From positions 8,072 to 72,071 of the forward strand of contig CAYJMD010000005.1 of the NCBI GenBank assembly GCA_964371585.1: a stretch of DNA of 64,000 nucleotides, in the 5' to 3' direction. This DNA comes from an uncultured Clostridiaceae bacterium (GTDB lineage: Bacteria > Bacillota > Clostridia > TANB77 > CAG-465). The stretch's first letter is position 1, and each line of letters opens with the position of its first letter. The notes under the pieces are model-generated. The model saw only the letters and a program-made list of their open reading frames with translations. It did no database searches and had not been told where the DNA came from. Position numbers and translations under genes: made by a program. This document shows, piece by piece, positions 11,164-29,563 of this stretch.

Positions 11164-11192
11164 TATTCAAAGTATATTTTCAAGAACATATA

Positions 11193-11222
11193 AAAAATCA
11201 CACTAAATTAGTGTGATTTTTT
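11193..11222 (+). terminator. Rho-independent terminator
   Basis: AAATCACAC-TAAATTA-GTGTGATTT followed by a T-run. Confidence 0.75.
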
Positions 11223-11292
11223 CATGTCAAAATATATTGAATTAATTTTCTTAATATTATATAATAATTTTATATAATGATGGAGGTTAAAA

Positions 11293-12966: not shown

Positions 12967-12973
12967 GGTATAT

Positions 12974-13777: not shown

Positions 13778-13784
13778 ACATAAC

Positions 13785-13813
13785 AAAAAAGATGCAATTT
13801 TGCATCTTTTTTT
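13785..13813. terminator. Bidirectional rho-independent terminator
   Basis: A6-GATGCA-ATTT-TGCATC-T7 between convergent genes. Confidence 0.7.
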
Positions 13814-14552: not shown

Positions 14553-14686
14553 AGTATTTCCTTTCTTTATACTTATTAAAGTATAACTATTTTAATTTAA
14601 TTTGACATAATTATAACATCTGATATAGCAATTGTCAACAAAATAAAAAAATAGAGAACTAATATATAATTAATTCTCTATTAAAT

Positions 14687-15580
14687 CTATTTACTATACT
14701 TTTTCTTATGTATTAATCTATCTATTTCATACCATGCTGATGATGCTACAAATATAGATGAATATGTACCTGCAAGAACACCAATTATAAGTGGTAATGC
14801 AAATTCTTGTAATACTTGTTGATTATTAATATATGCAAACACATAAATACATGTTATTGCTATTAATGTAGTTATTGATGTAAATATTGTTCTTTTAAAA
14901 GTTTGAGTTAAGCTTAAGTTTATAGTATCACTTAGCTCATCACTTCTTGAAGCTTTTCTTTTATTTTCACGTATTCTATCATATACAACTATAGTATCAT
15001 TAATTGAGTAACCTATAATTGTAAGTATAACTGCAACAAATGTTGAGTTTATAGATAAACCAAACATACCATATATAGCTATTATGATTAAAGCATCGTG
15101 TATAAGTGCTAATATAGCTGTTATAGCTGCTGGAACACCTAAAGTTTTAAACCTAATTGTTATATATATAAGTAATGCACATATTGAAACTATTATTGCA
15201 ACAAGTGCTGAATCAATAAGTTCTTTACCATATGCTGGTTGTATATTTCTTATACTAGGTTCATCCATATTTAAATATACTTCTTCTAATTTTTGTACTA
15301 TTTCATCTGCTTTTTCTTCAGATATAGGTTCTGTAGTTATAGCTACTGAAGAATCTCCACTAGATAATTTTTGTACTAATGGTACACTACCAGTTATTTC
15401 TTTAACTAAGTTTTCTATATCTGTATTGTTATATTCTTCTTTTAAATCTACTTGTATTTTAGTTCCACCTAAAAAATCAATATCAAGTTTAAATCCATTA
15501 ACAAATCCAAGTGTAATACCTGTAATAATTATTATTAAAGAGATAGTTAAAAATACATATCTATATTTTAAAAAATTCAT
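14687..15580 (-). CDS. secF: Protein translocase subunit SecF
   Basis: 297 aa. Typical SecF start (FLKYRYVFLTISLIIIITG...GFKLDIDFLGGT) and 6-TM SecD/F domain. Immediately downstream of secD. Confidence 0.92.
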   Translation of the reverse strand: MNFLKYRYVFLTISLIIIITGITLGFVNGFKLDIDFLGGTKIQVDLKEEYNNTDIENLVKEITGSVPLVQKLSSGDSSVAITTEPISEEKADEIVQKLEEVYLNMDEPSIRNIQPAYGKELIDSALVAIIVSICALLIYITIRFKTLGVPAAITAILALIHDALIIIAIYGMFGLSINSTFVAVILTIIGYSINDTIVVYDRIRENKRKASRSDELSDTINLSLTQTFKRTIFTSITTLIAITCIYVFAYINNQQVLQEFALPLIIGVLAGTYSSIFVASSAWYEIDRLIHKKKYSK

Positions 15581-15581
15581 A

Positions 15582-16877
15582 TTATTCTACCTCCTTTTTA
15601 AGTCCAAATAAAAATTTACTTTTAGATGAAAGAGGTATTAATTGTTTTAATAATACTTTTGTTACAACGATTGATGTAAATAATCCTACTAGTACACCTA
15701 TTGCAAGTACAAGTCCAAATCCTTTTATTGCACCTATACCTAATATGTATAATAATATAGCTATAATAAATGTTGTTACATTACCATCTATAATTGCAGT
15801 CATTGCTGTTTTATGACTTTTTTCAAATGCTTTTTTATATGTCATATTACTTCTAAGCTCATCTTTTAATCTCTCAAATATTATAACATTAGCGTCTACT
15901 GCCATACCTACTGATAGTACAAGACCTGCTATACCTGGAAGTGTTAAACTAGTTCCTGTTGAAACAAGAATAAATAACACAAGTCCTACATATGTTGCAA
16001 GAGATAATACTGACACAAGACCTGGTAGCCTATATATTATTATCATAAATATTGATATTAATATAAATGCTGTTATTCCAGCATATACACTTATCTCTAA
16101 AGCTTGTTGTCCTATAAATGGCCCTACATATTCTTTATTAATAACTTCTAAAGTAAATGGTAATGCACCTGAATCTATAAGCATTGCATATTCAGTTGCC
16201 GTTTCTTTTTTCTCTGAGTATGTACCATTACCAACTGTTATAATCGCTGTGTTTGAATCAATTTTTTCATCTACCATAGGTGCAAAAATTTCATTACCAT
16301 CTAATTTAACAACTAGTGATTTACCTACTAATGCTTCTGTAGCACTAGCAAATTTCACTCTTCCTTCTTCAGAAAAAGTTAAAACAACATGAGGTGTTGG
16401 TATTCCTGTATTATCTATAGCTGTTTCACTTAAAGATGCGCTAACTATATCATCACCAGATAATAGTACATTTCCTTCTTCATCTGTAAATTCAATTTTA
16501 GCTGTTTTATCAAGTCCTTTAACCGCTTCTAAAGGATCTCTACTTTCATCTGAAATATCTGCTGGTATTTCAAGAAGAATTTGATTTGTAGCTTCATCAT
16601 TTCTAATATTAGCATCAAAAATATTTATAGCTTCCAATCTTTGCCTAATTACAATTTCAGATTTTTTCAAATCTTCTGGAGTAATTTCTTCACCTTCTTC
16701 AGCTGTGGCTTGATAGGTAATTGAAACACCTCCACTTATATCTAATCCTGTTCTTATATTTTCAGCACCTGCTATGTATGTTTTATCACCAATAGTAAGT
16801 CCAAAAATACTAAAATATACAAAAACAATTATTACTATACATAATAATAGAAAGTTTAGTACGTTTTTTAATTTCAT
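15582..16877 (-). CDS. secD: Protein translocase subunit SecD
   Basis: 431 aa. N-terminal TM, periplasmic-type domain (LDISGGVSITYQ), C-terminal 5-TM SecD/F block (DANVIIFERLKDEL). Confidence 0.92.
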   Translation of the reverse strand: MKLKNVLNFLLLCIVIIVFVYFSIFGLTIGDKTYIAGAENIRTGLDISGGVSITYQATAEEGEEITPEDLKKSEIVIRQRLEAINIFDANIRNDEATNQILLEIPADISDESRDPLEAVKGLDKTAKIEFTDEEGNVLLSGDDIVSASLSETAIDNTGIPTPHVVLTFSEEGRVKFASATEALVGKSLVVKLDGNEIFAPMVDEKIDSNTAIITVGNGTYSEKKETATEYAMLIDSGALPFTLEVINKEYVGPFIGQQALEISVYAGITAFILISIFMIIIYRLPGLVSVLSLATYVGLVLFILVSTGTSLTLPGIAGLVLSVGMAVDANVIIFERLKDELRSNMTYKKAFEKSHKTAMTAIIDGNVTTFIIAILLYILGIGAIKGFGLVLAIGVLVGLFTSIVVTKVLLKQLIPLSSKSKFLFGLKKEVE

Positions 16878-17001
16878 AGTATCACTCCGTTTCTATAAAA
16901 AATATTATACTATTTAATAGAAAAATAGTCAACATATATTAATAATTTAATTCTTAAATTTAAACGCAAAAAAAGTGAGCATACACTCACTTCATTTCTG
17001 A

Positions 17002-17157
17002 CTAAACTCTTCTATTTCTAGCTTTTTTAGCAGCTCTGCATTCTTTACATCTAACTGGATCATTTTCGAATCCTTTATCTTGATAGAATTCTTGTTCAGC
17101 TACTGTAAATATAAATTCGTTTCCACAGTCTTTACATACGATTGTTTTATCTTGCAT
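17002..17157 (-). CDS. Small zinc-ribbon protein (51 aa)
   Basis: Not in the track (below size cutoff). rc reads MQDKTIVCKDCGNEFIFTVAEQEFYQDKGFENDPVRCKECRAAKKARNRRV* with CxxC...CxxC. Perfect SD AAGGAGG 7 nt upstream. Terminator hairpin GTGAGTGTATGCTCAC+T7 downstream (rc of ~16966-16995). Confidence 0.7.
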   Translation of the reverse strand: MQDKTIVCKDCGNEFIFTVAEQEFYQDKGFENDPVRCKECRAAKKARNRRV

Positions 17158-17351
17158 GGTTATACCTCCTTTAAGATTTTGATTAATACTAAAACTTATA
17201 ATTTCCTCTTCTTAAAGGGGTTACGATTTTTACTAATCAATGAGTATATTATATCACAAAATTTAACAAAAGCAAGGAATTTACATTTTTATTTAACATT
17301 TATCATTGTTTTATCAAATTTCGACAAAAAATAACCCCAAATATCTACTAT

Positions 17352-17385
17352 ACAAATAAAAAAGATGAGAATTATTCTCATCTTT
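17352..17385 (-). terminator. Rho-independent terminator of the coupling-protein module
   Basis: On the minus strand: AAAGATGAGA-ATAAT-TCTCATCTTT then TTTTATTTG. The stem overlaps the stop codon by 2 nt. Confidence 0.7.
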
Positions 17386-19366
17386 AATCTACTATATCAC
17401 TATCTGTGTCTCCAAAAAGTTCATCAAATTTTTTCTCTAATTCTTTTTGCAGATCAAATTCTTCTGATTTTTTAGTTTCAGTTACAACTGGTTTTACTTC
17501 TTCTTTAACTTCATTATCAAACTCTATCGCAGAACCTGAAGTTGCAGTTACATTATTTGAAGTTCCCATTTTAAATTCTTTAATTTTTCTATCAATCTCA
17601 TCTAAATGAGCTTGAACATTAAATGATTGTGGATCTATTTCAACTGGTTTTGGTGTATCTGTAATATTTGTTATCTTATATCTACCTATTACTTCTCTAT
17701 CTTTATGATATTTAAAAAACCAAGCTTTCTGTGTTCTTATAGGTCTTATACCTCTAATTAATAGTATTTCTTCATTTGGATTTAAACGTTTTATCTCATC
17801 AACTGTCATAAGCTCTCTACCTTGTCTTTGTTCACTAAAGCTTACCCCTTGTTTTTGAGTTTCAGTTTTATCTTTACTTATAGATCTACTTTCTATTTTA
17901 ATAGTTTTTTGTCCTAAAGACTTAGAAAAGTATTCACAAGTTTTTAAAGATTGACTTCCTAAGAATAATTGAGTATCACAGTTACCAATTATTGTTTCAT
18001 AATCATTTTTATACATTGCTTCAAGCTGATCTAAAGCTTGAACAATTACTGATACACTTATACCATAACTTCTTGTTGTACTTAATTTCTTTGGAAAATC
18101 AGGTATTTGTCCTATATTTACAAATTCATCTAGTAACATATATATTGGATTTTCTAAAGTTCCACCTAATTTATATGCTTCTGAATATAATGTTGTAAAC
18201 AATTGTGAGAAAAATATACTTAAGATATAGTCATATGTACTATGATCTGGTGGTGTAATTATATATAATGCTGTTTTATGTTTATATAATGACATGAAAT
18301 CAATCTCATTTATAGCTGTAACTTTAGCTATATTTGGAGTATCAAAATCTTTAAGTTTACTAACTAAACTTATTGCTATACTTTGTTTAGTTTTATCAGC
18401 AGCAAGTTTAATACTTTCATATTCTTTTCTACCTGGATGTTCTGGTTTTAACTCATCTATAAATAGCCTGTCCATAACTTTTTCATCAATTCCACCAGCT
18501 CTTACAATATTAACACACGATGATAGATTTTGTTCATCTTCTGGTAATAAAGATTTTACATAGTATATACACGCTTTAAGTAACATCATTGCTGAATCAT
18601 CCCAGAAAGTATCTCCAGAAGCATTTTTATCTTTTCCTGATTTAACTATAGTTTCTGCTAATATATTTACATCATTATGATCCTTTACATGAGCTAAAGG
18701 ATTATATCTATCACTATATTCAGTTTCAATAAGATTTAATACTTGTATATTATAACCATCTGCTTTTAGGTAATTAGCAGTATCTCTATACATTTCACCT
18801 TTTGGATCGGTAATTACATATGAACCTAATTTTTGCATTATATTAGGTTTTACATAACAAGCAGATTTACCTGCACCAGATCCCCCTATTACTAGTATAT
18901 TTTTATTTATTTTTACTTTCCTTTGATCTGTACCAAGGAAGTGTTTTTTACTTAAAATAAAACCTTCTTTTTTATTTAGAACTTCACTTCCATCTGAAAG
19001 TTTTCTAAACTCTTCTCCACCTTTTGCCCATTCACTCGAACCATTTTCAGTGCCTTCATAATCATGTTTCGTTTTATATTTATATCTATAATATAAATAA
19101 GCAAGTAACACCATTACAAATACATAGCCTAATCCTGACATAAACATGCCCATATTTTCACTATTTAAAGCAAAAACTTGTTCAATATTACCAAAAGGAT
19201 TAATAAAGTTCTGAGTAAATGTGTCTATAAAATTGTTTATTGATATACTACCATCTTCTGCAACACTGCTTACGAATATTGGCATATATACAAATATAGA
19301 TATTATTAAATAAAATATAATAAATATTATTATATGTTTTTTCACTTCATTAAAGTCAATCATCAT
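17384..19366 (-). CDS. Type IV secretion coupling protein-like ATPase (VirD4/TraG/TraD family), membrane-anchored
   Basis: 660 aa. Two N-terminal TMs. Walker A VLVIGGSGAGKSACYVKPN, Walker B YMLLDEFVNIGQIPDF. Downstream SVSVIVQALDQLEAMY block typical of T4CPs. Acidic C-terminal tail. Strong SD AAGGGGAG. Confidence 0.82.
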   Translation of the reverse strand: MMIDFNEVKKHIIIFIIFYLIISIFVYMPIFVSSVAEDGSISINNFIDTFTQNFINPFGNIEQVFALNSENMGMFMSGLGYVFVMVLLAYLYYRYKYKTKHDYEGTENGSSEWAKGGEEFRKLSDGSEVLNKKEGFILSKKHFLGTDQRKVKINKNILVIGGSGAGKSACYVKPNIMQKLGSYVITDPKGEMYRDTANYLKADGYNIQVLNLIETEYSDRYNPLAHVKDHNDVNILAETIVKSGKDKNASGDTFWDDSAMMLLKACIYYVKSLLPEDEQNLSSCVNIVRAGGIDEKVMDRLFIDELKPEHPGRKEYESIKLAADKTKQSIAISLVSKLKDFDTPNIAKVTAINEIDFMSLYKHKTALYIITPPDHSTYDYILSIFFSQLFTTLYSEAYKLGGTLENPIYMLLDEFVNIGQIPDFPKKLSTTRSYGISVSVIVQALDQLEAMYKNDYETIIGNCDTQLFLGSQSLKTCEYFSKSLGQKTIKIESRSISKDKTETQKQGVSFSEQRQGRELMTVDEIKRLNPNEEILLIRGIRPIRTQKAWFFKYHKDREVIGRYKITNITDTPKPVEIDPQSFNVQAHLDEIDRKIKEFKMGTSNNVTATSGSAIEFDNEVKEEVKPVVTETKKSEEFDLQKELEKKFDELFGDTDSDIVD

Positions 19367-19385
19367 ATCTCCCCTTACATAAATA

Positions 19386-19631
19386 TTAGATTATTAGTTC
19401 ATCAGAATCATCTGATTTTTCTTTTTCTACTGATTGCTCTACATTATTGTTATTTTCAGTTTCTTCAATTACAAATTCAACCGGTATTTGTTTTTTAATT
19501 TCAACCTCTTCTTTGATTAAACTAGGTTGTTTTTTTTCTATAGCATCTTTAATTTTTATGCTTGCTTTGCTTGAAATCGCAAATCCCTTTTCATCAACTG
19601 TTCCTGCTACTGCATTAACTACTATTCCCAT
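19386..19631 (-). CDS. Hypothetical small protein (81 aa) with acidic C-terminus
   Basis: ORF between the 173-aa gene and the T4CP gene on the same strand. Weak SD. C-terminus EKEKSDDSDELII. Coding status uncertain. Confidence 0.4.
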   Translation of the reverse strand: MGIVVNAVAGTVDEKGFAISSKASIKIKDAIEKKQPSLIKEEVEIKKQIPVEFVIEETENNNNVEQSVEKEKSDDSDELII

Positions 19632-19678
19632 CTTATTCTCGTATGATTACTCATACGCTCCTTTCCACATTAATCTAT

Positions 19679-20200
19679 CTATACAGATTTTATTTCCAGA
19701 ACAACATATGTTCTATGAGGTAATATTTTACATCTTCCCTTCATTTCATTTGTTACTGGATCTATAAATATTGACGGCTTTACTTCATCTCCATTTTGAG
19801 TATCAATTATTGTAAAGTGTCTTTTCATACTTGGATTATAAGCAACTTCTTTATATTCTACACCTTCAGTATTTAATATTGTTCCATAATATAAAGGAAT
19901 ATTCCCTTCTGTAACTTTAAATCCTTCTGCATTTAAATTACCTGTACTTAATATTGCTTTTTTATTTGTTAGCGTTAATAAAATAATTGCCTGATCTTCT
20001 TGTAAATCCTCAGTAATAACATTAAAAGTTTTAATCATTTTACCTTCTTTTTCAGAAGCAACATGATTTAATTTTTCTAATGTAAATGTTGAATCATACT
20101 CAGTAATTGGACTCTTATTTTTTTCTACTACAAATCCAATTGTATTCATCCCTTGTAAGTCTACTATTTCAAATTTATTTACTTGTATTATTGGTTCCAT
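19679..20200 (-). CDS. Hypothetical protein (173 aa), first gene of coupling-protein module
   Basis: Good SD AGAGGAGTG. No TM. No motif recognised. Confidence 0.6.
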   Translation of the reverse strand: MEPIIQVNKFEIVDLQGMNTIGFVVEKNKSPITEYDSTFTLEKLNHVASEKEGKMIKTFNVITEDLQEDQAIILLTLTNKKAILSTGNLNAEGFKVTEGNIPLYYGTILNTEGVEYKEVAYNPSMKRHFTIIDTQNGDEVKPSIFIDPVTNEMKGRCKILPHRTYVVLEIKSV

Positions 20201-20235
20201 ACTTTCACTCCTCTAAATAGTTGTATTACCCTTAT

Positions 20236-20264
20236 ATTATACAATACAATTTACATAATTACAA
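20236..20264 (-). promoter_or_regulatory. Sigma-A promoter of the 173aa-81aa-T4CP module
   Basis: Minus strand TTGTAA (rc of 20259-20264), 17-nt spacer, TATAAT (rc of 20236-20241). Lies in the 80-nt gap after the VanW-family gene. Confidence 0.5.
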
Positions 20265-20280
20265 CTTTTTTAATTATTTT

Positions 20281-21837
20281 TTACTCTTTAGTTCCTATTT
20301 TTACTATTTTATTTTGTGGAGAATACTTATCTTGTGATAAAAGTTCTCTTGAAACAATTTCTCCATCTAGTTTTTTCACAATGTAAGCTTCCGATATCTT
20401 TCCATTACTACCATTTGAAACTACAATTTCTTTACCTTTTTCTAGTGTATCATCATATATGTATTTAGTACTTGGATATAATGTTGATGTTACTACAGAT
20501 TCGATTTCTATTTCATATTCAATTTCTTCTTTCATCCCATACATACTTATATTTAAACTACCTGAAGGATCATATGTAGTAACTATTTTAATTGCATTAT
20601 TCCTTGTGTTTTTAAATTTGAAATCAAGTACTCCTGTATATATTGTAGCATCTCTACTTGGTAATACGTATCCAACTGGTAATCCATGTGCATATCTCAT
20701 TGTTATTTCTAAATTAGCAAGTAATGCTGTATTATATAATGATGATGAAACTTGGCATATACCTCCACCTGTTTCATTAACTATTGTTCCAGCCTTAAAC
20801 GTACCGGCTGGTAAATACCCTTGCTCTTTTGTTACATTACCAACAGTATTATTAAATGAAAATTCTTCTCCAGGTAATATTATAACCTCATCAATATAAC
20901 TTAAACCAATTTTTATATTATTACTTCTGTTATACTCATTTGGATTAAAATATGTGGTGAAACTTGCTACTTTATCTTCAAATAATTTATAACTTAAATC
21001 AACAGTTGTTATTGTAGGATTTATAGGAGTAAGATTAAGTTCACTCTCTACTGCACTACTAGAATAAAAATTATTAACAAATGCAGTTACTATATCTTTA
21101 TCTGTTCTATATCCAACAATTTCATTTATTAGAACTCTATTTATTTCATCAAATGTAGCATCTTTTGCTTCTACATTTGCAAGCTCGTATATTATTTGTG
21201 CCGATATTTGGTCAGGCACTTTTGTGTATATATCCAAACTATAATTATCTTGAATATTTGTTATGCTATTAAATATTGATTCTTTTTCTTTTTCATAATT
21301 AATAGCGTTACCTGTTTTGCCTTTAGTAAGTACAATCTTATTATTTGGTCTATCTAAGAAATACATATCATCTAAATATCTATCTTCTATTGTTAAATCA
21401 ATATTTCTAATAACTTCATCTAATTTTACTAAATCATAATCATATATAATTTCAATATCTTTTTTAAAAATATTATTTTTAAGTACATTTATTATATTAC
21501 TTAATTCATCTTCATCTCTTCCAGCAGCAAAACAAGCTAAAATAGTCTCAGAAATATTTATATTCAAATCTAAGTCTTCTGGTGTAATTGTTACACGCAT
21601 AGCATCATCTTGATAAATATGTAATTTTGATGAAGTTAACTCATCGTTAAATGAAATTATTAGTTCCTTTACTTCATCATAGGTATATCCGGATATATCA
21701 TGTCCATTAATATATATATTGTTGTATACATTATCATTTATCTTAATTGATATTACAATTAAAGAGATAGATATTAAAACAAAAATAAATATACATGAAA
21801 CTGTAATAATAAATTTCTTCTTTTTTTCCATATCCAC
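20281..21837 (-). CDS. VanW-family protein with N-terminal TM anchor and C-terminal G5 domain
   Basis: 518 aa. N-terminal TM. Central VanW-like block (LPGEEFSFNNTVGNVTKEQGYLPAGTF...GGGICQVSSSLYNTALLANLEI). C-terminal G5-like segment (KGKEIVVSNGSNGKISEAYIVKKLDGEIVSRELLSQDKYSPQNKIVKIGTKE). Confidence 0.8.
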   Translation of the reverse strand: MDMEKKKKFIITVSCIFIFVLISISLIVISIKINDNVYNNIYINGHDISGYTYDEVKELIISFNDELTSSKLHIYQDDAMRVTITPEDLDLNINISETILACFAAGRDEDELSNIINVLKNNIFKKDIEIIYDYDLVKLDEVIRNIDLTIEDRYLDDMYFLDRPNNKIVLTKGKTGNAINYEKEKESIFNSITNIQDNYSLDIYTKVPDQISAQIIYELANVEAKDATFDEINRVLINEIVGYRTDKDIVTAFVNNFYSSSAVESELNLTPINPTITTVDLSYKLFEDKVASFTTYFNPNEYNRSNNIKIGLSYIDEVIILPGEEFSFNNTVGNVTKEQGYLPAGTFKAGTIVNETGGGICQVSSSLYNTALLANLEITMRYAHGLPVGYVLPSRDATIYTGVLDFKFKNTRNNAIKIVTTYDPSGSLNISMYGMKEEIEYEIEIESVVTSTLYPSTKYIYDDTLEKGKEIVVSNGSNGKISEAYIVKKLDGEIVSRELLSQDKYSPQNKIVKIGTKE

Positions 21838-21852
21838 CTCTTTATATATTTT

Positions 21853-22551
21853 TTATTTGTTTTTTCTAATTAAAATGATTGGTGTAAGTGTAGCTGCTTG
21901 CCCAGCTGGATTATCTTTTATCATTTTTATTAATTCATCTTCTGTATTTTCTATAACGTCTGCTTTCCCAAGTATTTCTATATTAATATCATTAGCATCA
22001 ACTATCATACATTTTATACCAGTAGCTTTATAAATTTCATTACATACTCCTGATGAATTCTCTGGTATCCTAATTCCAAACTCAGCATAATCTTCAAATA
22101 CATCTCCATAAAACCCGTCAAGTCCACTAACTTCTGGACCAACTATTTCATAGAAGACTCCTCTTTTACCAAATAATTTACAAATTCCACCTGCAACAGC
22201 TGCATATATAACTTTAAATCTACCACATAAATTGATAGCAAATTGCATTTTATATGGATTATCAACTCCTACCCCTGCACTACTTTTCATTGCAAATCTT
22301 GATAAGAATTTTGCAAGTCCACTTACTTTAACATCTTTTTTATACACTACTCTATTTTGACATAGGCCTATAATTTTTTCACTAATTGAAACAATATCGC
22401 CTTCTTCGTATATATCTGTAACATATTTCTTTATTATATCTACGTAATTTTCACCTATTTGCACATAATGCGTTTCTATAGCATGTCTTAAATAAGTTTC
22501 ACCATTAACATCAATTTCTACTTTTTTATTTTTATTTGCTTTAAACTCCAT
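21853..22551 (-). CDS. F420-0:gamma-glutamyl ligase (CofE)-like family protein
   Basis: Resembles the CofE-like proteins common in Clostridia (recognition by eye only). Start moved to ATG 22551 (MEFKANK...), which has SD AAAGGAG. The track start lies further upstream. Confidence 0.55.
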   Translation of the reverse strand: MEFKANKNKKVEIDVNGETYLRHAIETHYVQIGENYVDIIKKYVTDIYEEGDIVSISEKIIGLCQNRVVYKKDVKVSGLAKFLSRFAMKSSAGVGVDNPYKMQFAINLCGRFKVIYAAVAGGICKLFGKRGVFYEIVGPEVSGLDGFYGDVFEDYAEFGIRIPENSSGVCNEIYKATGIKCMIVDANDINIEILGKADVIENTEDELIKMIKDNPAGQAATLTPIILIRKNK

Positions 22552-22649
22552 AACTGCTCCTTTATTCAATCTATACATATATGTTATCACATGTTTTTTT
22601 AAAAATCAATAATTATTTATAATTATTACTATATACTATCATATTCGTG

Positions 22650-22793
22650 TTATTTGATATTCTTTGTTATAATAGTATCACTATTTTTTATTACATCTGA
22701 TGTAATTATTCCAGCAATAATTATTAAAAATATAATTAAAATTATTACTACTATAATCATCACTATTTGAGTAAATGTCACTTTATTTTTCAT
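22650..22793 (-). CDS. Small single-TM protein (47 aa)
   Basis: Not in the track. rc reads MKNKVTFTQIVMIIVVIILIIFLIIIAGIITSDVIKNSDTIITKNIK*. SD AAAGGAGGAA 5 nt upstream. Confidence 0.4.
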   Translation of the reverse strand: MKNKVTFTQIVMIIVVIILIIFLIIIAGIITSDVIKNSDTIITKNIK

Positions 22794-22916
22794 AACATTC
22801 CTCCTTTGTTTTATTATATACTAAATCAAAAAATATTGCAAAAAATAAATTTATATTAAATTTAAATTTACATTTTAAGATATTTAATATATAATTAAAT
22901 AGTAATAGGTGATAAT

Positions 22917-25013
22917 ATGAAAAGTAAAATATGGATATTCGTTGTAGCTGTAATCTTAACTACAATTATAGTTTCTATGAATATGATTAATGTAAATTAC
23001 ATATCTGATTTAGATTCAATTTACACAGTAAACTCTAACGGCTCTATTAAAGTAAGTCAAACTATAACTTATGATTTAAGCTCTAAAATTTCAAATCTTG
23101 AATTTGCCATATATGGACCTGACGCTTACGAAAGCAGTAAAGAAAGTTTACCATGGTTAAACAATCCACCAGAATTTTCTAATGTAAAAGTAACTATGAC
23201 TAGTAATACTTCTAAACAAGAAACCACTTTAAAACATAAACTTGAAGATTATGGTCCTTACGATAATAAAATAGTAGTATTAGAAGAATTTGAGCCGGGC
23301 GTCTATGAGATAGAAATCTCCTATACAGTGCCAAATGGTATTGTTGAATATCGTGATCATTTGCATTTGTGTATTCAGCCCATAACTATTTTAAACAACT
23401 ATACTATTAATAATATGAATGTACGAGTAAATGCACAATATTCTGGATTTAAAGTTGATGAATTTTATCTTTTATCAAACATGGATAGTAATGCTATAAC
23501 TAATGGTTCTTTAGAATATAATTTTTATGATATTAAATCTTCTGATTTAATAAGTGTCAATCTTTTATTTGATAAAAGTGATAGTTTTGTAGGAAATCAT
23601 TTACACTATGGAACTGCTGATATTAAAGAGGTATTAGAAGATAATTTATCTATGATTACTGAAAGTAATAATATACTATCAACTTTAGATAATCTTGTTG
23701 TAGTATTTATAATTATACTAGCGCTATACTATATATTCCTTATATTTAAATATGATTATCAAAATTTAAATTCAATGAGTGGACATAGTTACGAGCAAGT
23801 ATTCGACGAATTAAATTTAGTAGTAGGTGCTTGTATTGTGCAAGAAAGAAATGCTGAAGCCAAAGATATTATTGGAATACTTATTAGTTTAATAGTAGAT
23901 AAAGTTGTTATTTTAAATGTAAATAAAAAAGTTACTGAAAATGAATACTTATTAGAACTACACCCTGACTATTATAAGAATATAGATAAACTAGAAGAAT
24001 TATCTAGAATTGAAAAACAAGTAATTGATTTCTTTTTTAAAGCTGAAAAAAATAATTATATCAGCAAATATGAAAAGAGTATTAATCTTAAAGATTCACT
24101 TCTAGCAATTCAAAGTACTTCTGATAGACAAATAGAATTAGAAACAATAGTTGCATCACTTAATGCCGAATTGTGGGAAAAAAATCACGAAACTGCAATA
24201 GTTCCTAAACTAACTAAAACATTTAATATCATATTAATGGTTATAGTTATGTCACTGGTAATTGCTAGGTTTGTATTTGAACAAATTTCAAACTATATAA
24301 TTTTAAAAGACTTTTGGGATTTATTTAATATTTCTAATCAACTTGAAATATTAATTTTACTATTTCTTCCGTATATTATTATATTTATACTATACTATTT
24401 CTTTGAAGTAGTGCTTCTCGGACTAAACGCTGCTGTATACATAACTAAATCTAATGCCACTAGAATATCTAACTCAGTTAATAAACATGTTATGAAATCA
24501 AATACTATAGATAAAAAATTATTTACTGCCTCTGTAGACAGAGTATTTAAAATTGCAAATAAATATATTTTCTTAGTATCGATTATAACATCAATACTGT
24601 ATTTAATATTAAATGACACAATAATAATATTCTATGGAGTACTAGCAGCTATAGCTGTACTAATAGTTGTAACTGATGATTACATGAAAAAATATTCTTA
24701 TGACTCTTTAAAAAGATTTATAGGCCTTAAAATATTAGAAGATAAAGTTATATATGGTACTTTCTTAGATGATAAGACAATTGATTATAGTCATATTTGG
24801 GGTAATTATATAGGATTTGCATTTGCTCTTGGATATACTCAAAATCAAGAATTAATTAAAATATTAAATTCAGATTTTGAACTTCAAAAATATGATAAAG
24901 AAGCTTTTGTTTACTTTACAAACCCTGATACTTATGTGAATATTTTCAAAGATATAAATAGAAAAGATAGGGCAATAGGTAGAGTGTTGGGAAGAAAAAA
25001 ATATCATTACTAA
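22917..25013 (+). CDS. Large multi-pass membrane protein (DUF2207-like architecture, tentative)
   Basis: 698 aa. N-terminal TM/signal, ~250-aa extracytoplasmic domain, then several TMs separated by a soluble segment. Family call by architecture only. Confidence 0.5.
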   Translation: MKSKIWIFVVAVILTTIIVSMNMINVNYISDLDSIYTVNSNGSIKVSQTITYDLSSKISNLEFAIYGPDAYESSKESLPWLNNPPEFSNVKVTMTSNTSKQETTLKHKLEDYGPYDNKIVVLEEFEPGVYEIEISYTVPNGIVEYRDHLHLCIQPITILNNYTINNMNVRVNAQYSGFKVDEFYLLSNMDSNAITNGSLEYNFYDIKSSDLISVNLLFDKSDSFVGNHLHYGTADIKEVLEDNLSMITESNNILSTLDNLVVVFIIILALYYIFLIFKYDYQNLNSMSGHSYEQVFDELNLVVGACIVQERNAEAKDIIGILISLIVDKVVILNVNKKVTENEYLLELHPDYYKNIDKLEELSRIEKQVIDFFFKAEKNNYISKYEKSINLKDSLLAIQSTSDRQIELETIVASLNAELWEKNHETAIVPKLTKTFNIILMVIVMSLVIARFVFEQISNYIILKDFWDLFNISNQLEILILLFLPYIIIFILYYFFEVVLLGLNAAVYITKSNATRISNSVNKHVMKSNTIDKKLFTASVDRVFKIANKYIFLVSIITSILYLILNDTIIIFYGVLAAIAVLIVVTDDYMKKYSYDSLKRFIGLKILEDKVIYGTFLDDKTIDYSHIWGNYIGFAFALGYTQNQELIKILNSDFELQKYDKEAFVYFTNPDTYVNIFKDINRKDRAIGRVLGRKKYHY

Positions 25014-25045
25014 TAATGATAATATGAAAAAAACACTAATAAAAT

Positions 25046-25085
25046 AATGCCTGAGATATATTTTGTATCTCAGGCATTATTTTAT
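25046..25085. terminator. Bidirectional rho-independent terminator
   Basis: 12-bp perfect stem AATGCCTGAGAT / ATCTCAGGCATT with flanking A/T runs, between convergent genes. Confidence 0.75.
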
Positions 25086-25106
25086 TCTCAGTTTACAATA
25101 CTATTT

Positions 25107-25808
25107 TTAATTATTTTTCTCTCTTCCAAATATTTCTATTACTCTATCAGCTAGCACTTCCATAGAATCAATATAATCTGATGATAACTTATTATCTCTC
25201 TTTATAAGAGAAAGTTCTGTACATCCAAGTATTATTTTTGTACATCCCATTTTTTTTAAAGAATCAACAACATTATAAAAAGATACCATATCAGGAGATT
25301 TACCTTTTTTCACCTCATCATAAATTATATTCATAATAACTTTCTGATTTTCATCAGAAGGTATCTCATAATCTAAATTATAATTTTCACATATACTCTG
25401 ATATGTATCTGTCATGATTGTACCTGTTGTTGCCAGTATTCCTACCTTATCACATTCTGCTTTACACTCTTTAACAGTTTCTTCGATCATATTAATAAAG
25501 GGAACATCTATATTCTTATCTAACTCTTTATAAAAAAAATGAGCTGTGTTACATGGAATAACTAAAACATCAGCACCAAAATCTACTAATTTTTTAGAGT
25601 CTTCTATCATAACTTTAAAAGGATCTTTAGTACTATTACCAATTATAAATTCAGTTCTATCTGGTGTAGAAGCTCTTGAATTTATAATTATATCTATATG
25701 ATCTTGATCACATGTTACTTTTGTTTTATTTATGATTAATTGATAAAAATATGATGATGCTTCTGGTCCTAATCCTCCTAGTATTCCTAATAATTGTGGT
25801 TTACTCAA
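25107..25808 (-). CDS. Aspartate racemase (Asp/Glu/hydantoin racemase family)
   Basis: 233 aa. LGILGGLGPEASSYFY, first catalytic Cys region VIPCNTAHFF, second ILGCTELSL. Confidence 0.85.
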   Translation of the reverse strand: MSKPQLLGILGGLGPEASSYFYQLIINKTKVTCDQDHIDIIINSRASTPDRTEFIIGNSTKDPFKVMIEDSKKLVDFGADVLVIPCNTAHFFYKELDKNIDVPFINMIEETVKECKAECDKVGILATTGTIMTDTYQSICENYNLDYEIPSDENQKVIMNIIYDEVKKGKSPDMVSFYNVVDSLKKMGCTKIILGCTELSLIKRDNKLSSDYIDSMEVLADRVIEIFGREKNN

Positions 25809-25866
25809 ATAATCACTCCTTCTTATACAAATATAACTGATATAGAGTATATATCAGTTACTTAAA

Positions 25867-26424
25867 CTATTGTTCAAAAGATACTTTAACATTTTCTCTT
25901 TCTTCTGGTTTTGTAATTTCGAAAAAATCCATTTTTTCATATTTGTATATTTTTGCTACCATGTTTGCTGGGAACATTAATATAGTTGTATTATATAATT
26001 GTACAGCATCATTGTAGAACTGTCTTGCATATAATATTTTTTGTTCAGTTTCAGTAAGTTCTTCTTGTAACATAATAAAATTTTTGTCCGCTTTTAAATC
26101 AGGATAACTTTCAGTTACAGCAAATAAAGTTTTAAGTGTATTTTCTAATTGCTGTCCTGCTTTTACTTTTTCATTAGAACTGCCTGCTGAATTATACGCA
26201 CTTCTTGCCGAAATAACTTTTTCTAAAGTTTCAGCTTCGTGGTTCATATAGCCTTTTACAGTTTCAACTAAATTAGGTATTAAATCAAATCTTCTTTTTA
26301 ATTGAGTATCAACCTGTGCAAAAGCATTTTCAGCTCTTAATTTAACAGAAACCATATTATTATATATTGCTACGAAAGCTATTATCAATACAATTATTAT
26401 ACCTAGTATAATATAAATCCACAT
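25867..26424 (-). CDS. lemA: LemA family protein
   Basis: N-terminal TM then a typical LemA sequence (QVDTQLKRRFDLIPNLVETVKGY...ARQFYNDAVQLYNT). Start set at ATG 26424 (SD AAGGAGTG 6 nt upstream). Confidence 0.9.
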   Translation of the reverse strand: MWIYIILGIIIVLIIAFVAIYNNMVSVKLRAENAFAQVDTQLKRRFDLIPNLVETVKGYMNHEAETLEKVISARSAYNSAGSSNEKVKAGQQLENTLKTLFAVTESYPDLKADKNFIMLQEELTETEQKILYARQFYNDAVQLYNTTILMFPANMVAKIYKYEKMDFFEITKPEERENVKVSFEQ

Positions 26425-26505
26425 ATATATCACTCCTTATATATAATTATTATATCATATCTAATATTTATTGCAAGCAGTTTTTAAACTTTATTTTTAT
26501 ATATT

Positions 26506-26537
26506 AAAAAGAGTGCAATATAAATTACACTCTTTTT
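26506..26537 (-). terminator. Rho-independent terminator after tsf
   Basis: AAAAAGAGTG...CACTCTTTTT hairpin immediately downstream of the tsf stop. Confidence 0.7.
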
Positions 26538-26541
26538 AATA

Positions 26542-27189
26542 TTAACCGTTAACTTGTTTCATAACTTCTTCAGCGAAATTAGATTCTTCTTTTTCAATGC
26601 CTTCTCCTCTTTCGAATCTAGCAAATCTACGAACAACTATATTTTCACCAATTTTAGCAATAAGTTCTGTTAATAATTCACCAACTGTTTTGTCTGGATC
26701 TTTAACAAAAGCTTGTTCTAATAAGCAAATTTCTGAGAAGAATTTATTTAATCTTCCTTCAACGATTTTTGCTGCAACTGCTTCTGGTTTACCTTCTTTA
26801 ATAGCTTGAGCTGTTAAAGCTTCTTTTTCAGCTTCTACTACACTAGCAGGTACTTCTTCTCTTCTTACATATGTTGGTCCAACTGCAGCTATATGCATAG
26901 CTACGTCTTTAACAAATGTTTTAAAGTCTTCATTATTAGAAACAAAATCTGTTTCAGAGTTTACTTCTACTAAACTTCCGTATTTTCCACCATGAATGTA
27001 TGCTTCAACGATACCTTCACTTGCTACTCTACCAGCTTTTTTAGCAGCTTTAGCAATTCCTCTGTCTTTTAATAAAGCTATCGCTTTATCCATGTTTCCA
27101 TCTGCTTCTACTAAAACTTTTTTGCAGTCCATTATTCCTGCGCCTGTTCTTTCTCTTAATTCTTTTACTTGTCCAGCTGTTACTGCCAC
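26542..27189 (-). CDS. tsf: Translation elongation factor Ts (short form)
   Basis: 215 aa. [25 protein letters not shown] is a canonical EF-Ts UBA-like N-terminus. Confidence 0.95.
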
Positions 27190-27201
27190 TATAAACTCCC
27201 C

Positions 27202-28035
27202 CTATTCTCCTGTAGTTTGTTCTTTTTTAGCGTAATTGTTATTTCTATTAAATCTGTTGTTTTGTCTTGGTTTTCTTTCGATTTTGTCAACACCAACTTC
27301 TTTAACTAACTCTTCCATTGTTATTTCTTCAATATCATCTACTAATTCTGTATTACCATCTTTAACTTCTAATATAGCGTCTGCTATTTTACCAGCTATT
27401 AAAGCAACACTTCTTACTGAATCATCGTTACCTGGAACAACGTAATCTACGTCTTCAGGATTACAGTTTGAATCTATAAGACCAATTGTAGGGATACCTA
27501 ATTTTCTAGCTTCTCTAGTACAGATATATTCTTTTTTAGAGTCAGCAAGGAAAATAAGTGATGGAAGTTTTTCCATATTTTTAATACCACCTAAGTTAGT
27601 ATTTAATTTTTCCATTTCATTTTTAAGACCGATAACTTCTTTTTTAGGTAATAAATCAAAAGTTCCATCTTCTTGCATTCTTTCAAGTTCATGTAATCTT
27701 GCAATTCTTTTCTTAATTGTAGAAAGATTTGTAAGAGTACCTCCAAGCCATCTGCTGTTGATGTAGTACATTCCACTTCTTTCAGCTTCAGTTTTCATAG
27801 TTTCTTGGATTTGTTTTTTAGTACCAACAAAAAGTACAGTACCTCCATTTGCTACAACTTGTTTAGTTAAGTTGTAAGCTTCTTGTAATTTTTTTAATGT
27901 TTTTTGTAAATCTAATATGTAGATTCCATTTCTTGCTGTAAAGATGTATGGAGCCATTCTTGGATCCCATCTTTTTGTTTGATGTCCAAAGTGAACACCA
28001 GCTTCTAGTAATGATTTCATAGGTATAATTGCCAT
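27202..28035 (-). CDS. rpsB: 30S ribosomal protein S2
   Basis: 277 aa. [24 protein letters not shown]. Carries an Asn/Arg-rich C-terminal extension. Confidence 0.97.
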
Positions 28036-28148
28036 TTAAAATTCCTCCTTCTTTTCTCCTCCACAGCTCTCTTAATCTTTTGCGTCCATAATGGAAGAAG
28101 CAAAGACTCCATCTGTGTGTGTATTACTCATACTTTATGAGCACGTTT

Positions 28149-28177
28149 ATTATATCATAGTTACACATATTAATCAA
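28149..28177 (-). promoter_or_regulatory. Sigma-A promoter of rpsB-tsf
   Basis: Minus strand TTGATT (rc of 28172-28177), 17-nt spacer, TATAAT (rc of 28149-28154). Leaves a ~105-nt leader. Confidence 0.55.
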
Positions 28178-28204
28178 TAGTTATGTAATATTTCTTCATG
28201 ATAT

Positions 28205-28233
28205 TTGCATATTTTTATTATTTATGGTATAAT
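28205..28233 (+). promoter_or_regulatory. Sigma-A promoter driving the large non-coding region and downstream membrane-protein gene
   Basis: TTGCAT (28205-28210), exactly 17-nt spacer, TATAAT (28228-28233). Divergent from the rpsB promoter. Confidence 0.6.
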
Positions 28234-28239
28234 ATGTAT

Positions 28240-28840
28240 TGATGGTGCATTATTCTAGTAATGCTGTATATTATGAGGGTGGGGCTAAAAATCCACTAAA
28301 GAGCATATCGTTGAAGTTTCTTTTAAGTGCGCATTACGCCCAGTTTTGTGTGTTTGATGGAAGTAAGATTTTAGGGTACAATATAATGGCATATATTTAA
28401 CCCCCTTAAATCGTGGAGGCTTAAATTTAGCATATATTTTTTGCTGTATTTAAGTATAACCTATGTAAAGTGCCAAGACACAATACATAGTGTAGCTTGA
28501 CTTGAGTGAGAATATTGGGATATATTTTAAACGTAATAAACTGTTATGGCCATAATAGTTTATTTACTGATATTGAAATTATTATTGCAAAAAAGTCTAA
28601 TAATATTAACAGTGTTTTTTAAGGAAAACTTCTAGAATGTTTGTTTTACTTCAAAGCATGATTTTTTAAGGATTAAGGTACGGACTTAAGTGGCGATCTA
28701 GTTTTCTAATAGGTGACTTTAGAATATTTCTTTTAAATGGAAACAACTACACAGCAATGTTTAGTAAGAAATAGAGAAATTCTACTAGACCTGAAACCGT
28801 AAAATTTACTTATAAAATTACCATCAATTTTATTTTAATT
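28240..28840 (+). ncRNA. Candidate large structured non-coding RNA (~600 nt); OLE-RNA-like by size and gene context
   Basis: The track has no ORF >=60 aa in any frame between 28036 and 28853. G+C is locally high: I counted 23/60 in both 28261-28320 and 28321-28380, versus 4/60 in the intergenic line 1261-1320. Contains hairpin GCATTA-TTCTAG-TAATGC (28247-28264), a 15-bp inverted repeat at 28535-28564, and GC-rich islands (GAGGGTGGGGC, GTGCGCATTACGCCC, CGTGGAGGC, GGTACGGACTTAAGTGGCGATC). No terminator before the downstream gene. Boundaries approximate. Confidence 0.45.
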
Positions 28841-28853
28841 AAGAAAGAGAAAA

Positions 28854-29501
28854 ATGGAAGAAGATAATTTAAAACAAAAAGAAAAAAAGATAATTTCAAA
28901 AACAACTACAAAGAGTAAAACGAAAAAAGCACGTAAACATTTAAATAAATCAACTTTTGATTGGTTTATTCAAGTTTCAGTAATGACATTTGTGCTTTCA
29001 CTTATTTTTTCGCTTATATCAACACTACTTATATCAAAATTGGATTTATTTCCAGCAATATTAATGTTGCTTTTAGTAATATTTTTAGGTGTTTTTTTTG
29101 ATGTTGTAGCTGTTGCTGTAACAATTGCTAAAGAACATAATTTCCACGCTAAAGCTAGTAAAAAGATAAAAGGAGCTAAAACGTCTTTATTTTTAATTAG
29201 TAACTCGCACAAGGTTTCAAACTTTTGTGCTGATGTAATTGGCGATATAGCTGGTGTACTAAGTGGTGCAATATCTGCTCTTATAACAATGAAGATTATG
29301 AGTGATTTTAATATTTCTATGGATTTACAATTTATAATAAGTGCTATAGTAGCTTCACTTACTGTAGGTGGTAAAGCAATAGGTAAATCAGTTGCAAAAG
29401 AATACTGTGATGAAATCGTGGACAAAGTTAGTAAGATATTGAATAAATTTGATAAAAAAGATAATTTAAATACAAAAGCTAAGCAAACAAATAATAAATA
29501 A
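28854..29501 (+). CDS. Small 4-TM membrane protein with Lys-rich N-terminal tail (OapA-like by architecture and position, tentative)
   Basis: 215 aa. N-terminus KQKEKKIISKTTTKSKTKKARKHLNK, then four predicted TM helices, then a Lys-rich C-terminus. Lies directly downstream of the ORF-free structured region with no intervening terminator. Confidence 0.5.
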   Translation: MEEDNLKQKEKKIISKTTTKSKTKKARKHLNKSTFDWFIQVSVMTFVLSLIFSLISTLLISKLDLFPAILMLLLVIFLGVFFDVVAVAVTIAKEHNFHAKASKKIKGAKTSLFLISNSHKVSNFCADVIGDIAGVLSGAISALITMKIMSDFNISMDLQFIISAIVASLTVGGKAIGKSVAKEYCDEIVDKVSKILNKFDKKDNLNTKAKQTNNK

Positions 29502-29528
29502 AAAATTGATTAAATTATAATATAAAAA

Positions 29529-29556
29529 ATAGATGTAGGGATTATCCTTACATCTA
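29529..29556. terminator. Bidirectional rho-independent terminator
   Basis: TAGATGTAGG-GATTAT-CCTTACATCTA (one bulge), flanked by A6 and a T-rich run. Between convergent genes. Confidence 0.65.
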
Positions 29557-29563
29557 TTTTATT

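Follow-up and report, generated by a model that had tools for sequence, protein, structure and literature searches.

The window, a 64-kb stretch of DNA, carries an OLE RNA gene (ole) followed by oapA, and we are highly confident that this pair is an autonomous transcription unit encoding the core of the OLE ribonucleoprotein. The locus is an ordinary additional member of the well-studied OLE/OapA family and contributes one representative of a very AT-rich lineage that is poorly sampled. Comparative data for it and its relatives outline an ole-oapA unit that is minimal and complete in itself, its promoter conserved and its 5' end predictable, and the GGCC dimerisation loop and the GNRA and bulge determinants of P13 persist here in RNAs of only 29% G+C. 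These data are of modest value for OLE researchers and leave knowledge of the family unchanged; for testing the biochemical function of OLE, the locus offers nothing beyond the existing model organisms.

Identity and structure of the OLE RNA

The region was searched with Rfam covariance models, including those for OLE, ROOL, GOLLD, HEARO and raiA that a preliminary description of this DNA had proposed to run. OLE (RF01071) matched with 345.4 bits (E 7.9e-98; gathering score 50), and the match covered positions 1-616 of the 616 in the model. It was the only one of 4227 Rfam families to pass, with nothing else below E 0.1. The next-best matches in the region lay on the opposite strand at E values of at least 0.18, and ROOL, GOLLD, HEARO and raiA, all contained in the Rfam library, gave no match even at E up to 10. 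In the window sequence, 138 of the 153 consensus pairs were standard base pairs and 15 were non-standard. P7 was 10 nt shorter than in the Rfam consensus, and P8 and P9 had consensus length. The elements of the RNA are as follows.

28226-28840, + strand: OLE RNA as delimited by Rfam RF01071; its first ~14 nt overlap the -10 box
28241-28246, + strand: GATGGT, 5' strand of the putative closing helix, 7 nt after the -10 box
28278-28297, + strand: hairpin GGUGGG-GCUAAAAA-UCCACU, Rfam model positions 54-73, essentially invariant in 9 sequences
28317-28363, + strand: P5/P5.1 stem, with 6 pairs changed on both sides among homologues
28532-28567, + strand: P9.3 hairpin with 15-bp arms and the loop UGGCCA; palindrome GGCC at 28548-28551
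28704-28724, + strand: P13 hairpin; GNRA tetraloop GUGA at 28713-28716, one bulged A at 28709
28746-28765, + strand: P14.1 hairpin; GNRA tetraloop GCAA at 28754-28757
28820-28825, + strand: ACCATC, 3' strand of the putative closing helix, followed by a T-rich tail

GATGGT and ACCATC are perfect complements and both are invariant in 9 sequences. The helix that they would form is absent from the Rfam consensus structure, and we infer that it corresponds to the published P1. The ~585 nt between the closing strands fold into the full OLE architecture, including P12.2, P13 and P14.1 with GNRA loops. The hairpin at 28278-28297 lies directly 5' of J4a/5 and is therefore probably P4a, by analogy one of the mapped OapA-binding regions; the name was taken from the P5 and J4a/5 numbering in PMC9723947 and from PMC12265935. 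The segment AUCGUUGAAG (28307-28316), which flanks P5, matched the consensus of the J4a/5 strand of the OapC k-turn, and positions U84 and C85 of the Rfam model coincided with the Halalkalibacterium halodurans numbering in PMC9723947.

Two inverted repeats had been pointed out before, and both are present. The 15-bp arm pair at 28535-28564 lies inside the P9.3 hairpin, the loop of which contained GGCC in 9/9 aligned sequences. A palindromic tetranucleotide in L9.3 (GGCC, covarying to GAUC or AGCU) is the intermolecular kissing loop of the OLE dimer (PMC12286853). P9.3 was only 57% paired in the MAFFT alignment, which probably reflects misalignment of a variable stem. The other repeat, 28247-28264, has 6-bp arms (GCATTA/TAATGC) and falls where Rfam has no pairing; its 3' arm varies among relatives, with partial, register-shifting complementarity. 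The P13 tetraloop of relatives was GUGA, GUAA or GCGA. The GNRA loop and the one-nucleotide bulge of P13 determine OapB binding, and the GNRA loop of P14.1 is a weak second OapB site (PMC7936274).

An alignment of relatives, which the preliminary description had suggested as a check for covariation, revealed compensatory changes. With a structure taken over from the alignment of the window itself to the Rfam model, paired cells across 9 homologues amounted to 85%, compared with 41-45% in slid controls. Fifty-four of the 153 consensus pairs were changed on both sides, a number reached by 0 of 500 shuffles. Conserved single-stranded motifs were invariant across homologues whose OapA proteins share only 56-66% identity.

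The region had been described as about 600 nt free of ORFs of at least 60 aa, and this held: the only ORF of at least 40 aa within 28036-28853 was 53 aa long (TTG start, 28239-28400). The G+C counts reported at the same time, 23/60 for each of 28261-28320 and 28321-28380 and 4/60 for 1261-1320, were exact. The G+C content was 0.293 in the whole RNA, 0.268 in the window and 0.271 in coding sequence, which is a modest enrichment of the RNA; short ordinary intergenic regions had 0.13-0.22, and the RNA was clearly richer than these.

Promoter, transcript ends and OapA

The transcription unit around the RNA comprises the following elements.

28205-28210, + strand: -35 hexamer TTGCAT of the ole promoter; TTG invariant in the window and 8 aligned related loci
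28225-28233, + strand: extended -10 element TGgTATAAT; TG and TATAAT invariant in all related loci
28826-28853, + strand: 28-nt spacer with a purine-rich ribosome-binding region (AAGAAAGAGAAAA), free of hairpins and terminators
28854-29501, + strand: oapA, an intact ORF of 215 aa encoding four TM helices
29232-29246, + strand: codons of DxxxD (D127-V-I-G-D131) at the start of TM3
29526-29560, unstranded: intrinsic terminator, a 16-bp stem between an A run and a T run (-18.3 kcal/mol)

The promoter TTGCAT-17-TATAAT that had been recognized at 28205-28233 was upheld by comparison with related loci. TATAAT at 28228-28233 follows the -35 hexamer after a spacer of 17 nt, and it is an extended -10 element owing to TG at 28225-28226. 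TTGnnT was kept in register 17 nt before TATAAT in 11/11 related loci tested (9 distinct sequences), and the promoter sat 6-9 nt before the invariant GATGGT in related loci. DNA upstream of the -35 hexamer was unalignable among these loci, unlike the promoter itself. The pattern TTG-N17-TGnTATAAT occurred 4 times in the 64 kb, compared with 0.25 expected; generic promoter-like matches in the region were not enriched over shuffles (10 found, 11.7 expected). The first ~14 nt of the Rfam match overlap the -10 box, so that the transcript probably starts near 28240. A sigma-A-type extended -10 promoter would place the transcription start at about this position, exactly where GATGGT begins. For the ole transcript, start site, 3' end and stability are all predicted.

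A terminator scan detected no terminator between the promoter and the oapA ORF, the start codon of which is 28 nt after the 3' closing strand. This agrees with the preliminary description, and one strong terminator lies after the ORF, at 29526-29560. Probably bidirectional, it is located between the stop codons of the convergent genes oapA (29501) and ftsH (29564). Comparable hairpins were found 3' of oapA in the related loci L002, L006, L007, L009, L015 and L016. The neighbours on both sides lie on the opposite strand in the window and in most relatives, so the ole-oapA pair must be transcribed alone.

By sequence, the product of the 215-aa ORF is OapA. The Lys-rich N terminus and four TM helices seen in the preliminary description were both recovered: the K-rich tail spans aa 1-35, with K/R at 12 of the first 35 residues, and the AlphaFold model (pLDDT 78) predicted TM1 at ~37-61, TM2 at ~65-91, TM3 at ~118-152 and TM4 at ~157-183, in agreement with four hydrophobic segments in the sequence. 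A basic loop, FHAKASKKIKGAK (aa 97-109), connects TM2 and TM3 and would lie on the cytoplasmic face. Among 25 homologues, H98, K103 and G107 of this loop were invariant and K104 and K109 nearly invariant. D127 and D131 were invariant in the same set and are conserved in the OapA of Pusillibacter faecalis. The motif DxxxD is a distinctive feature of OapA and is lacking in CNNM domains (PMC11332333). The homology check proposed for the protein linked it to the OapA of the canonical P. faecalis locus (WP_213543803.1), with 36% identity over 181 aa (E 5e-37). The closest OapA among 5.8 billion proteins was 73% identical, and an exact-sequence look-up returned no identical copy on record.

The predicted fold of OapA is nearest to the CorB and CorC TM domains of the CNNM/CorB/CorC/MpfA Mg2+ transporters (PF01595), with a weak sequence match: PF01595 scored 25.3 bits, below the gathering threshold of 28.4. 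Foldseek ranks 1-6 were all CorB/CorC TM domains (7M1T, 7M1U, 7CFF and 7CFG; probability 0.99-1.0), at TM-scores of 0.44-0.60 and with weak E-values, the best being 6e-3. A CNNM/CorB-like fold has likewise been published for OapA (PMC11332333). In sequence searches of the PDB, the single sequence gave CorB at E 0.16 and the profile gave LolE at E 0.025, both insignificant, and the fold comparison alone was informative. NCBIfam, which has no OapA model, gave noise only. Unlike CNNM transporters, OapA has no CBS or CorC domain, as confirmed here by domain search, and possesses DxxxD (PMC11332333). We rejected the assignment of the protein as a CNNM/CorC/MpfA transporter on these grounds, namely the PF01595 score below the cut-off, the lack of other domains and the presence of DxxxD. 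PF20990 (DUF2207_C) on a few longer homologues was a weak membrane-domain match of no significance.

By analogy with H. halodurans and Clostridium acetobutylicum, the primary ole-oapA transcript would be bicistronic, and its structured 5' part may accumulate as a stable ~600-nt RNA via processing or partial termination at the T-rich tail. OapA would enter the membrane as a dimer and bind OLE in a ratio of 2:1 or more. This binding likely involves the conserved basic loop that links TM2 to TM3, and a role of the Lys-rich N-terminal tail in it is speculation. Binding would tether OLE to the membrane and might insert the RNA into it. OLE would dimerise via the GGCC kissing loop of L9.3, and the particle may aid tolerance of alcohols, cold, excess Mg2+ and poor carbon sources. 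This functional model is drawn from PMC12265935, PMC9723947, PMC7936274, PMC10898510 and PMC12286853.

Alternative readings of the locus

The 600-nt region could be thought of as a mere cis-acting 5' leader, a riboswitch or attenuator regulating oapA: it is co-oriented with oapA, the start codon is 28 nt downstream, and no terminator intervenes. We consider this very unlikely, because the region is a full-length member of a family experimentally shown to be the RNA of a membrane RNP (PMC12265935, PMC9723947). Moreover, there is no expression platform, that is, no terminator/anti-terminator and no RBS-sequestering structure in the spacer, and ~585 nt with 153 conserved pairs are far beyond any known leader.

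A similarly low probability applies to the idea that the RNA is a decaying OLE relic, the function of which was lost after the move from an ancestral operon. In favour of a relic, the score is lower than that of canonical OLE (345 versus 400 bits), P7 is shortened, and gut clades with reduced genomes reportedly lack OapB and OapC for the most part (PMC11332333). However, every model position is covered, and the single-stranded motifs stayed invariant while OapA diverged to the identities given above. The helices are maintained by compensatory changes, the promoter is conserved, and oapA retains every motif in an intact ORF.

It is hardly credible that the region encodes a small protein, namely the 53-aa ORF at 28239-28400. 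The frame has a TTG start, and strong conservation of the nucleotide sequence keeps it open in several relatives. In contrast, the start codon is gone and in-frame stop codons were gained in L007 and L008, and substitutions track base-pairing, not codon structure.

The last alternative, a different large structured RNA (ROOL, GOLLD, HEARO, raiA) or a novel class next to an unrelated membrane protein, which was the second reading offered in the preliminary description, had size and lack of ORFs and nothing more in its favour, and its probability is negligible because it is already refuted by OLE alone passing among the Rfam families. The first reading offered there, an OLE/OapA locus relocated beside rpsB and ftsH with its own promoter, is supported by the full-length OLE match and also by the OapA features, the conserved promoter and the absence of canonical neighbours from the window.

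Genomic context and comparison with known OLE loci

The usual context of OLE is xseAB-ispA-dxs, with xseA, xseB and ispA upstream and dxs, tlyA, nadK, argR and recN downstream; this context does not define the family. In the window, ole-oapA is flanked by rpsB-tsf on one side (divergent) and by ftsH-tilS-dnaB on the other (ftsH convergent), and no xseA, xseB, ispA, dxs, tlyA, nadK, argR or recN was found among 50 ORFs scanned across 826-60667. We collected 16 related loci from uncultured Clostridia, about 11 of them independent, which represent eight different neighbourhoods. The canonical context was also absent from all eight neighbourhoods of close relatives, and tblastn with the window neighbours (rpsB, tsf, ftsH, tilS, dnaB and others) against eight related loci detected no shared context. 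OLE was directly upstream of the oapA homologue in 15/15 scanned loci that hold a close homologue; the scan covered L001-L009 and L012-L017, and L010 and L011 duplicate L009 in other samples. The earlier emphasis on a non-canonical context is true for the window but of reduced significance, since eight contexts make it the rule of the clade. A non-canonical ole-oapA context is normal for this clade, and the canonical isoprenoid/argR/recN neighbourhood is shown to be dispensable.

The nearest relatives of the window are MAGs labelled Clostridia or Bacillota, mostly derived from the gut, and the window carries SpoIID and Firmicute-type gene arrays. OLE hosts are Bacillota, typically anaerobes or extremophiles. 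No OapB or OapC gene was found within the 64-kb window. In Bacillus, OapB is located between map and infA. A 95-aa ORF at the same position in L014 was considered as OapB and rejected, being hydrophobic, without a family match and not a KOW protein.

The cassette organisation of ole-oapA itself is well supported. With a compact relocatable cassette, the extended -10 promoter would set the 5' end of the RNA at the closing helix, so that 5' processing would be unneeded. It is rather unlikely that such a cassette has, in AT-rich uncultured Clostridia, repeatedly landed beside highly expressed translation-machinery operons. The translation genes concerned are rpsB-tsf here and rplQ-rpoA-rpsD-rpsK-rpsM, rplL-rplJ-rplA-rplK-nusG and gatCAB/rpsT in relatives; they account for three or four of the eight contexts, which is a bare tally. 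If true, the reason for a place beside translation genes could be that very high expression is selected for, or that there is a functional tie to the ribosome. A link between bS21 and OLE has been reported (PMC12054373).

The pair resembles OLE/OapA of H. halodurans in the RNA family, RF01071 at full length, and in the position of oapA immediately downstream. The ole gene of H. halodurans is already known to possess its own promoter (PMC9723947); this feature is shared, as are the GNRA tetraloop and single-nucleotide bulge of P13 and the J4a/5 k-turn strand (PMC9723947, PMC7936274). The OapA proteins have in common four TM helices, DxxxD and a basic cytoplasmic cluster (PMC12265935). The ole gene of H. 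halodurans lies within a large operon (PMC9723947), whereas the pair in the window stands alone between rpsB-tsf and ftsH. The host of the window is very AT-rich (26.8% G+C), Clostridia-like to judge by its nearest relatives, and not an alkaliphile. The H. halodurans system is known from experiments and the present locus from sequence, in a window without an OapB or OapC gene.

Gut lineages of this kind are already among the 2,822 Bacillota OLE representatives of a published survey (PMC11332333). Among these, the RNA is similar to 'variant 1' OLE of the TANB77 clade (Fernando and Breaker 2024, PMC11332333) in its type of host, an uncultured AT-rich Clostridia MAG, and in the shortened P7. Its 345 bits fall inside the variant 1 band of 310-390; the covariance model of those authors differs, and this match is only suggestive. 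Variant 1 has shorter P7, P8 and P9 and often lacks the OapB site in P13, whereas P8 and P9 are full here and the P13 determinants are present. The P9.3 loop with palindromic GGCC is like that of the C. acetobutylicum OLE homodimer (cryo-EM, PMC12286853); the latter dimer was solved, and dimerisation of the window RNA is predicted from the motif alone.

In the canonical locus of P. faecalis pMM59_01 (NZ_AP023421.1), OLE likewise directly precedes the gene of a homologous OapA, which shares the DxxxD and basic-loop motifs. argR is often near OLE (PMC10898510). Unlike the window, P. faecalis keeps its isoprenoid, argR and recN neighbours in the array ole-oapA-dxs-tlyA-nadK-argR-recN, and its OLE scored 399.8 bits with the same model, compared with 345.4 bits for that of the window.

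Identity of the RNA and its protein

When the entire 64-kb window was scanned against all 4227 Rfam families, only two matches rose above the gathering thresholds: OLE (RF01071; 345.4 bits vs gathering 50, E 7.9e-98), spanning positions 1–616 of the 616-position model, and a tRNA at 9503–9588. A permissive re-scan of 28036–28900 gave, besides OLE, nothing below E 0.18, with weak matches on the opposite strand. Among the families that the preliminary description had proposed for checking, OLE alone matched, and ROOL, GOLLD, HEARO and raiA are therefore excluded. Standard pairs occur at 138 of the 153 OLE consensus base pairs.

Features of the ole-oapA locus
28205–28233, + strand: ole promoter (TTGCAT 28205–28210, 17 nt, TATAAT 28228–28233)
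28226–28840, + strand: OLE match
28532–28567, + strand: hairpin with P9.3 loop UGGCCA, bearing a GGCC palindrome
Within OLE, + strand: J4a/5 strand AUCGUUGAAG, agreeing with the k-turn-forming consensus (PMC9723947)
Within OLE, + strand: P13 hairpin with a GUGA tetraloop and a one-nucleotide bulge
Within OLE, + strand: P14.1 hairpin with a GCAA loop
28854–29501, + strand: oapA
29526–29560: strong terminator after oapA

The 215-aa protein has four hydrophobic segments, and its AlphaFold model (25 homologues, pLDDT 78) predicts four long transmembrane (TM) helices, with a Lys-rich N-terminal tail that is disordered. Invariant across the family alignment is DxxxD (D127, D131), a motif described as a distinguishing mark of OapA that CNNM domains lack (PMC11332333). 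TM2 and TM3 are separated by a basic loop, FHAKAxKK.KG.K, in which H98 and K103 are invariant and K104 and K109 nearly invariant. The sole Pfam match, CNNM, fell below threshold (25.3 bits vs 28.4), and CorB or CorC transmembrane domains took all six top places among the Foldseek matches in the PDB; one of these is 7M1U, with which the literature made the same OapA fold comparison (PMC11332333). Among plasmid records, tblastn located a homologue on pMM59_01, a 504-kb replicon of Pusillibacter faecalis (36% identity over 181 residues, E 5e-37). Its annotation is 'CNNM domain-containing protein'; it lies directly 3' of a 399.8-bit OLE and directly 5' of dxs-tlyA-nadK-argR-recN, which is the canonical arrangement. 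A few kb downstream of that locus, an ordinary T-box leader (positions 15260–15508 of the P. faecalis locus L017, 93.6 bits) precedes tyrS. With the full-length RF01071 match and the OapA identity of the protein, the initial reading of an OLE/OapA locus is borne out: the RNA is OLE, the protein is OapA, and the locus adds one member to an already known family.

Structure, conservation and predicted expression of the RNA

The G+C content is 29.3% in the OLE RNA, 26.8% in the window and 13–22% in ordinary short intergenic regions; the earlier counts for 60-nt lines (23 in each of two, 4 in line 1261–1320) were exact. The sole ORF of at least 40 aa in the 818-nt gap, a 53-aa frame with a TTG start, is not preserved across relatives, in agreement with the ORF-free stretch first described. 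Both inverted repeats reported earlier were recovered, the 6-bp one at 28247–28264 and the 15-bp one as the P9.3 hairpin. The GGCC palindrome of L9.3 is the intermolecular kissing loop in the cryo-EM OLE dimer (PMC12286853), and the P13 tetraloop and one-nucleotide bulge are OapB determinants (PMC7936274). A survey of 2,822 Bacillota representatives included reduced forms in uncultured gut clades; its 'variant 1' band is 310–390 bits with a different covariance model, compared with 345.4 bits by the Rfam model here (PMC11332333). The RNA, a candidate variant 1 member by its score, is shortened in P7 only, and its P13 site is intact. Four CTAG palindromes (28255, 28632, 28698, 28785) lie in OLE, all within conserved segments, and two of them form both strands of P12.2; they may correspond to the 'palindromic' OapA-binding sites of PMC12265935.

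With the 215-aa protein as query, eight related loci were retrieved from species-representative genomes, all uncultured Clostridia or Bacillota MAGs (OapA identity 56–66%), and a full-length OLE (338–367 bits) lies immediately 5' of the oapA homologue in all eight. Homologous proteins led to eight more loci, of which three represent a single contig recovered in different samples; the OLE-then-oapA order held in 6/6 scanned. Nine OLEs were aligned with MAFFT and the Rfam structure was projected onto the alignment, with 3' partners slid one to three columns as the control. Paired cells amounted to 85%, compared with 41–45% in the slid controls; 54 pairs were changed on both sides, and none of 500 shuffles attained the observed values. 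The single-stranded OLE motifs are invariant in the nine sequences. Thus, the secondary structure of OLE is conserved among relatives.

The ole promoter, present as first described, also carries TG (extended -10). TTGnnT-17-TGnTATAAT is kept in register in 11/11 relatives examined (9 distinct sequences), and DNA 5' of the -35 is unalignable among them; the promoter is conserved. The full pattern occurs four times in the window (0.25 expected). An invariant GATGGT (28241–28246), 6–9 nt past the -10, is the perfect complement of invariant ACCATC (28820–28825). From sequence, these probably form a closing helix, placing the transcription start at ~28240 and the RNA length at ~585 nt, and the Rfam match probably opens with ~14 nt of promoter rather than RNA. 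The 28-nt spacer before oapA is purine-rich and without structure. As stated earlier, no terminator precedes the ORF; terminator hairpins lie 3' of oapA in the window and at least six relatives. Because both neighbours are encoded on the opposite strand, with rpsB-tsf diverging from the pair and ftsH-tilS-dnaB converging on it, ole-oapA must form its own transcription unit. In H. halodurans, ole has its own promoter within its operon (PMC9723947).

By analogy with experimental work on other species, a stable RNA would accumulate from the 5' portion of the bicistronic transcript. OapA dimers would bind this RNA and retain it at, or within, the membrane (PMC12265935), and OLE would dimerise via L9.3 (PMC12286853). 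The particle would support growth in ethanol, cold, high Mg2+ and poor carbon sources (PMC10898510, PMC9723947). The locus gives no clue to OLE's biochemical activity.

Genomic context of ole-oapA

Pfam annotation of 50 ORFs of at least 90 aa (826–60667) identified housekeeping genes, among them polC, rseP, cdsA, frr, secDF, tsf, rpsB, ftsH, tilS, dnaB, rplI, gdpP, ksgA, tyrS, a two-component system, SpoIID, a type IV pilus cluster and scpA. Since xseA, xseB, ispA, dxs, argR and recN were not found among these ORFs, the context is non-canonical, as first proposed. This is unexceptional: eight different neighbourhoods occur among the relatives, and not one is canonical or includes the window's neighbours. 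In four of eight distinct contexts (the window, L001/L004/L014, L009 and L012), ole-oapA lies ~0.2–6 kb from translation-machinery operons, namely rpsB-tsf (window 26542–28035), rplQ-rpoA-rpsD-rpsK-rpsM-rpmJ-infA, rplL-rplJ-rplA-rplK-nusG-secE-rpmG and gatCAB with rpsT. By this raw count of three or four of eight contexts, the stand-alone cassette may prefer sites beside such operons.

Record MT835614.1 (1–5333, human faeces), labelled 'UNVERIFIED: Bacteriophage sp.', looks bacterial. Its apparent gene order, identified by eye in an unannotated record, is xseA (3' end), a 240-nt gap, an OapA-like gene, tlyA, nadK, argR and recN. The OapA-like product (204 aa, DVIGD) is 33% identical to the window's OapA, and OLE was not detected in the 13.4 kb scanned, even with the cut-off relaxed to E 1 for the first 1.5 kb. 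Since ole and oapA are described as mutually inclusive (PMC11332333), it is unusual for an oapA homologue to occupy the canonical neighbourhood with no ole beside it.

Other elements in the window

On the - strand, another perfect extended -10 promoter (TTGATT-17-TGaTATAAT, 28177 to 28149) is arranged back-to-back with that of ole, in a position that suits rpsB (start codon at 28035). In the ~110-nt rpsB leader, t44 (RF00127) matched below threshold at 28052–28139 (19.1 bits vs 44, E 0.39). In enterobacteria, t44 lies upstream of rpsB, overlapping the S2 leader; the match here may reflect a leader through which S2 autoregulates, or chance.

The Firmicute-type array rpsB-tsf...frr-cdsA-rseP-polC is interrupted by ~17 kb (9279–26541), starting at the tRNA (long variable arm, anticodon loop CUUAAAA) and containing an ABC transporter, secDF, a TraG/VirD4-type coupling protein (17384–19366), VanW, DUF2207, a racemase and LemA. 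In Bacillus, pyrH, uppS, dxr and proS belong to this array; they are absent from the window's split array. The interruption could stem from rearrangement or be what remains of an integrated element.

Within 47821–58400, a SpoIID homologue (47821–48855) and an M23 peptidase adjoin the type IV pilus cluster, which comprises T2SSF, two T2SSE ATPases, a prepilin peptidase, a PilN-like protein and several small unannotated ORFs. The sporulation genes in the window fit the published correlation of OLE with genes of this kind (PMC11332333).
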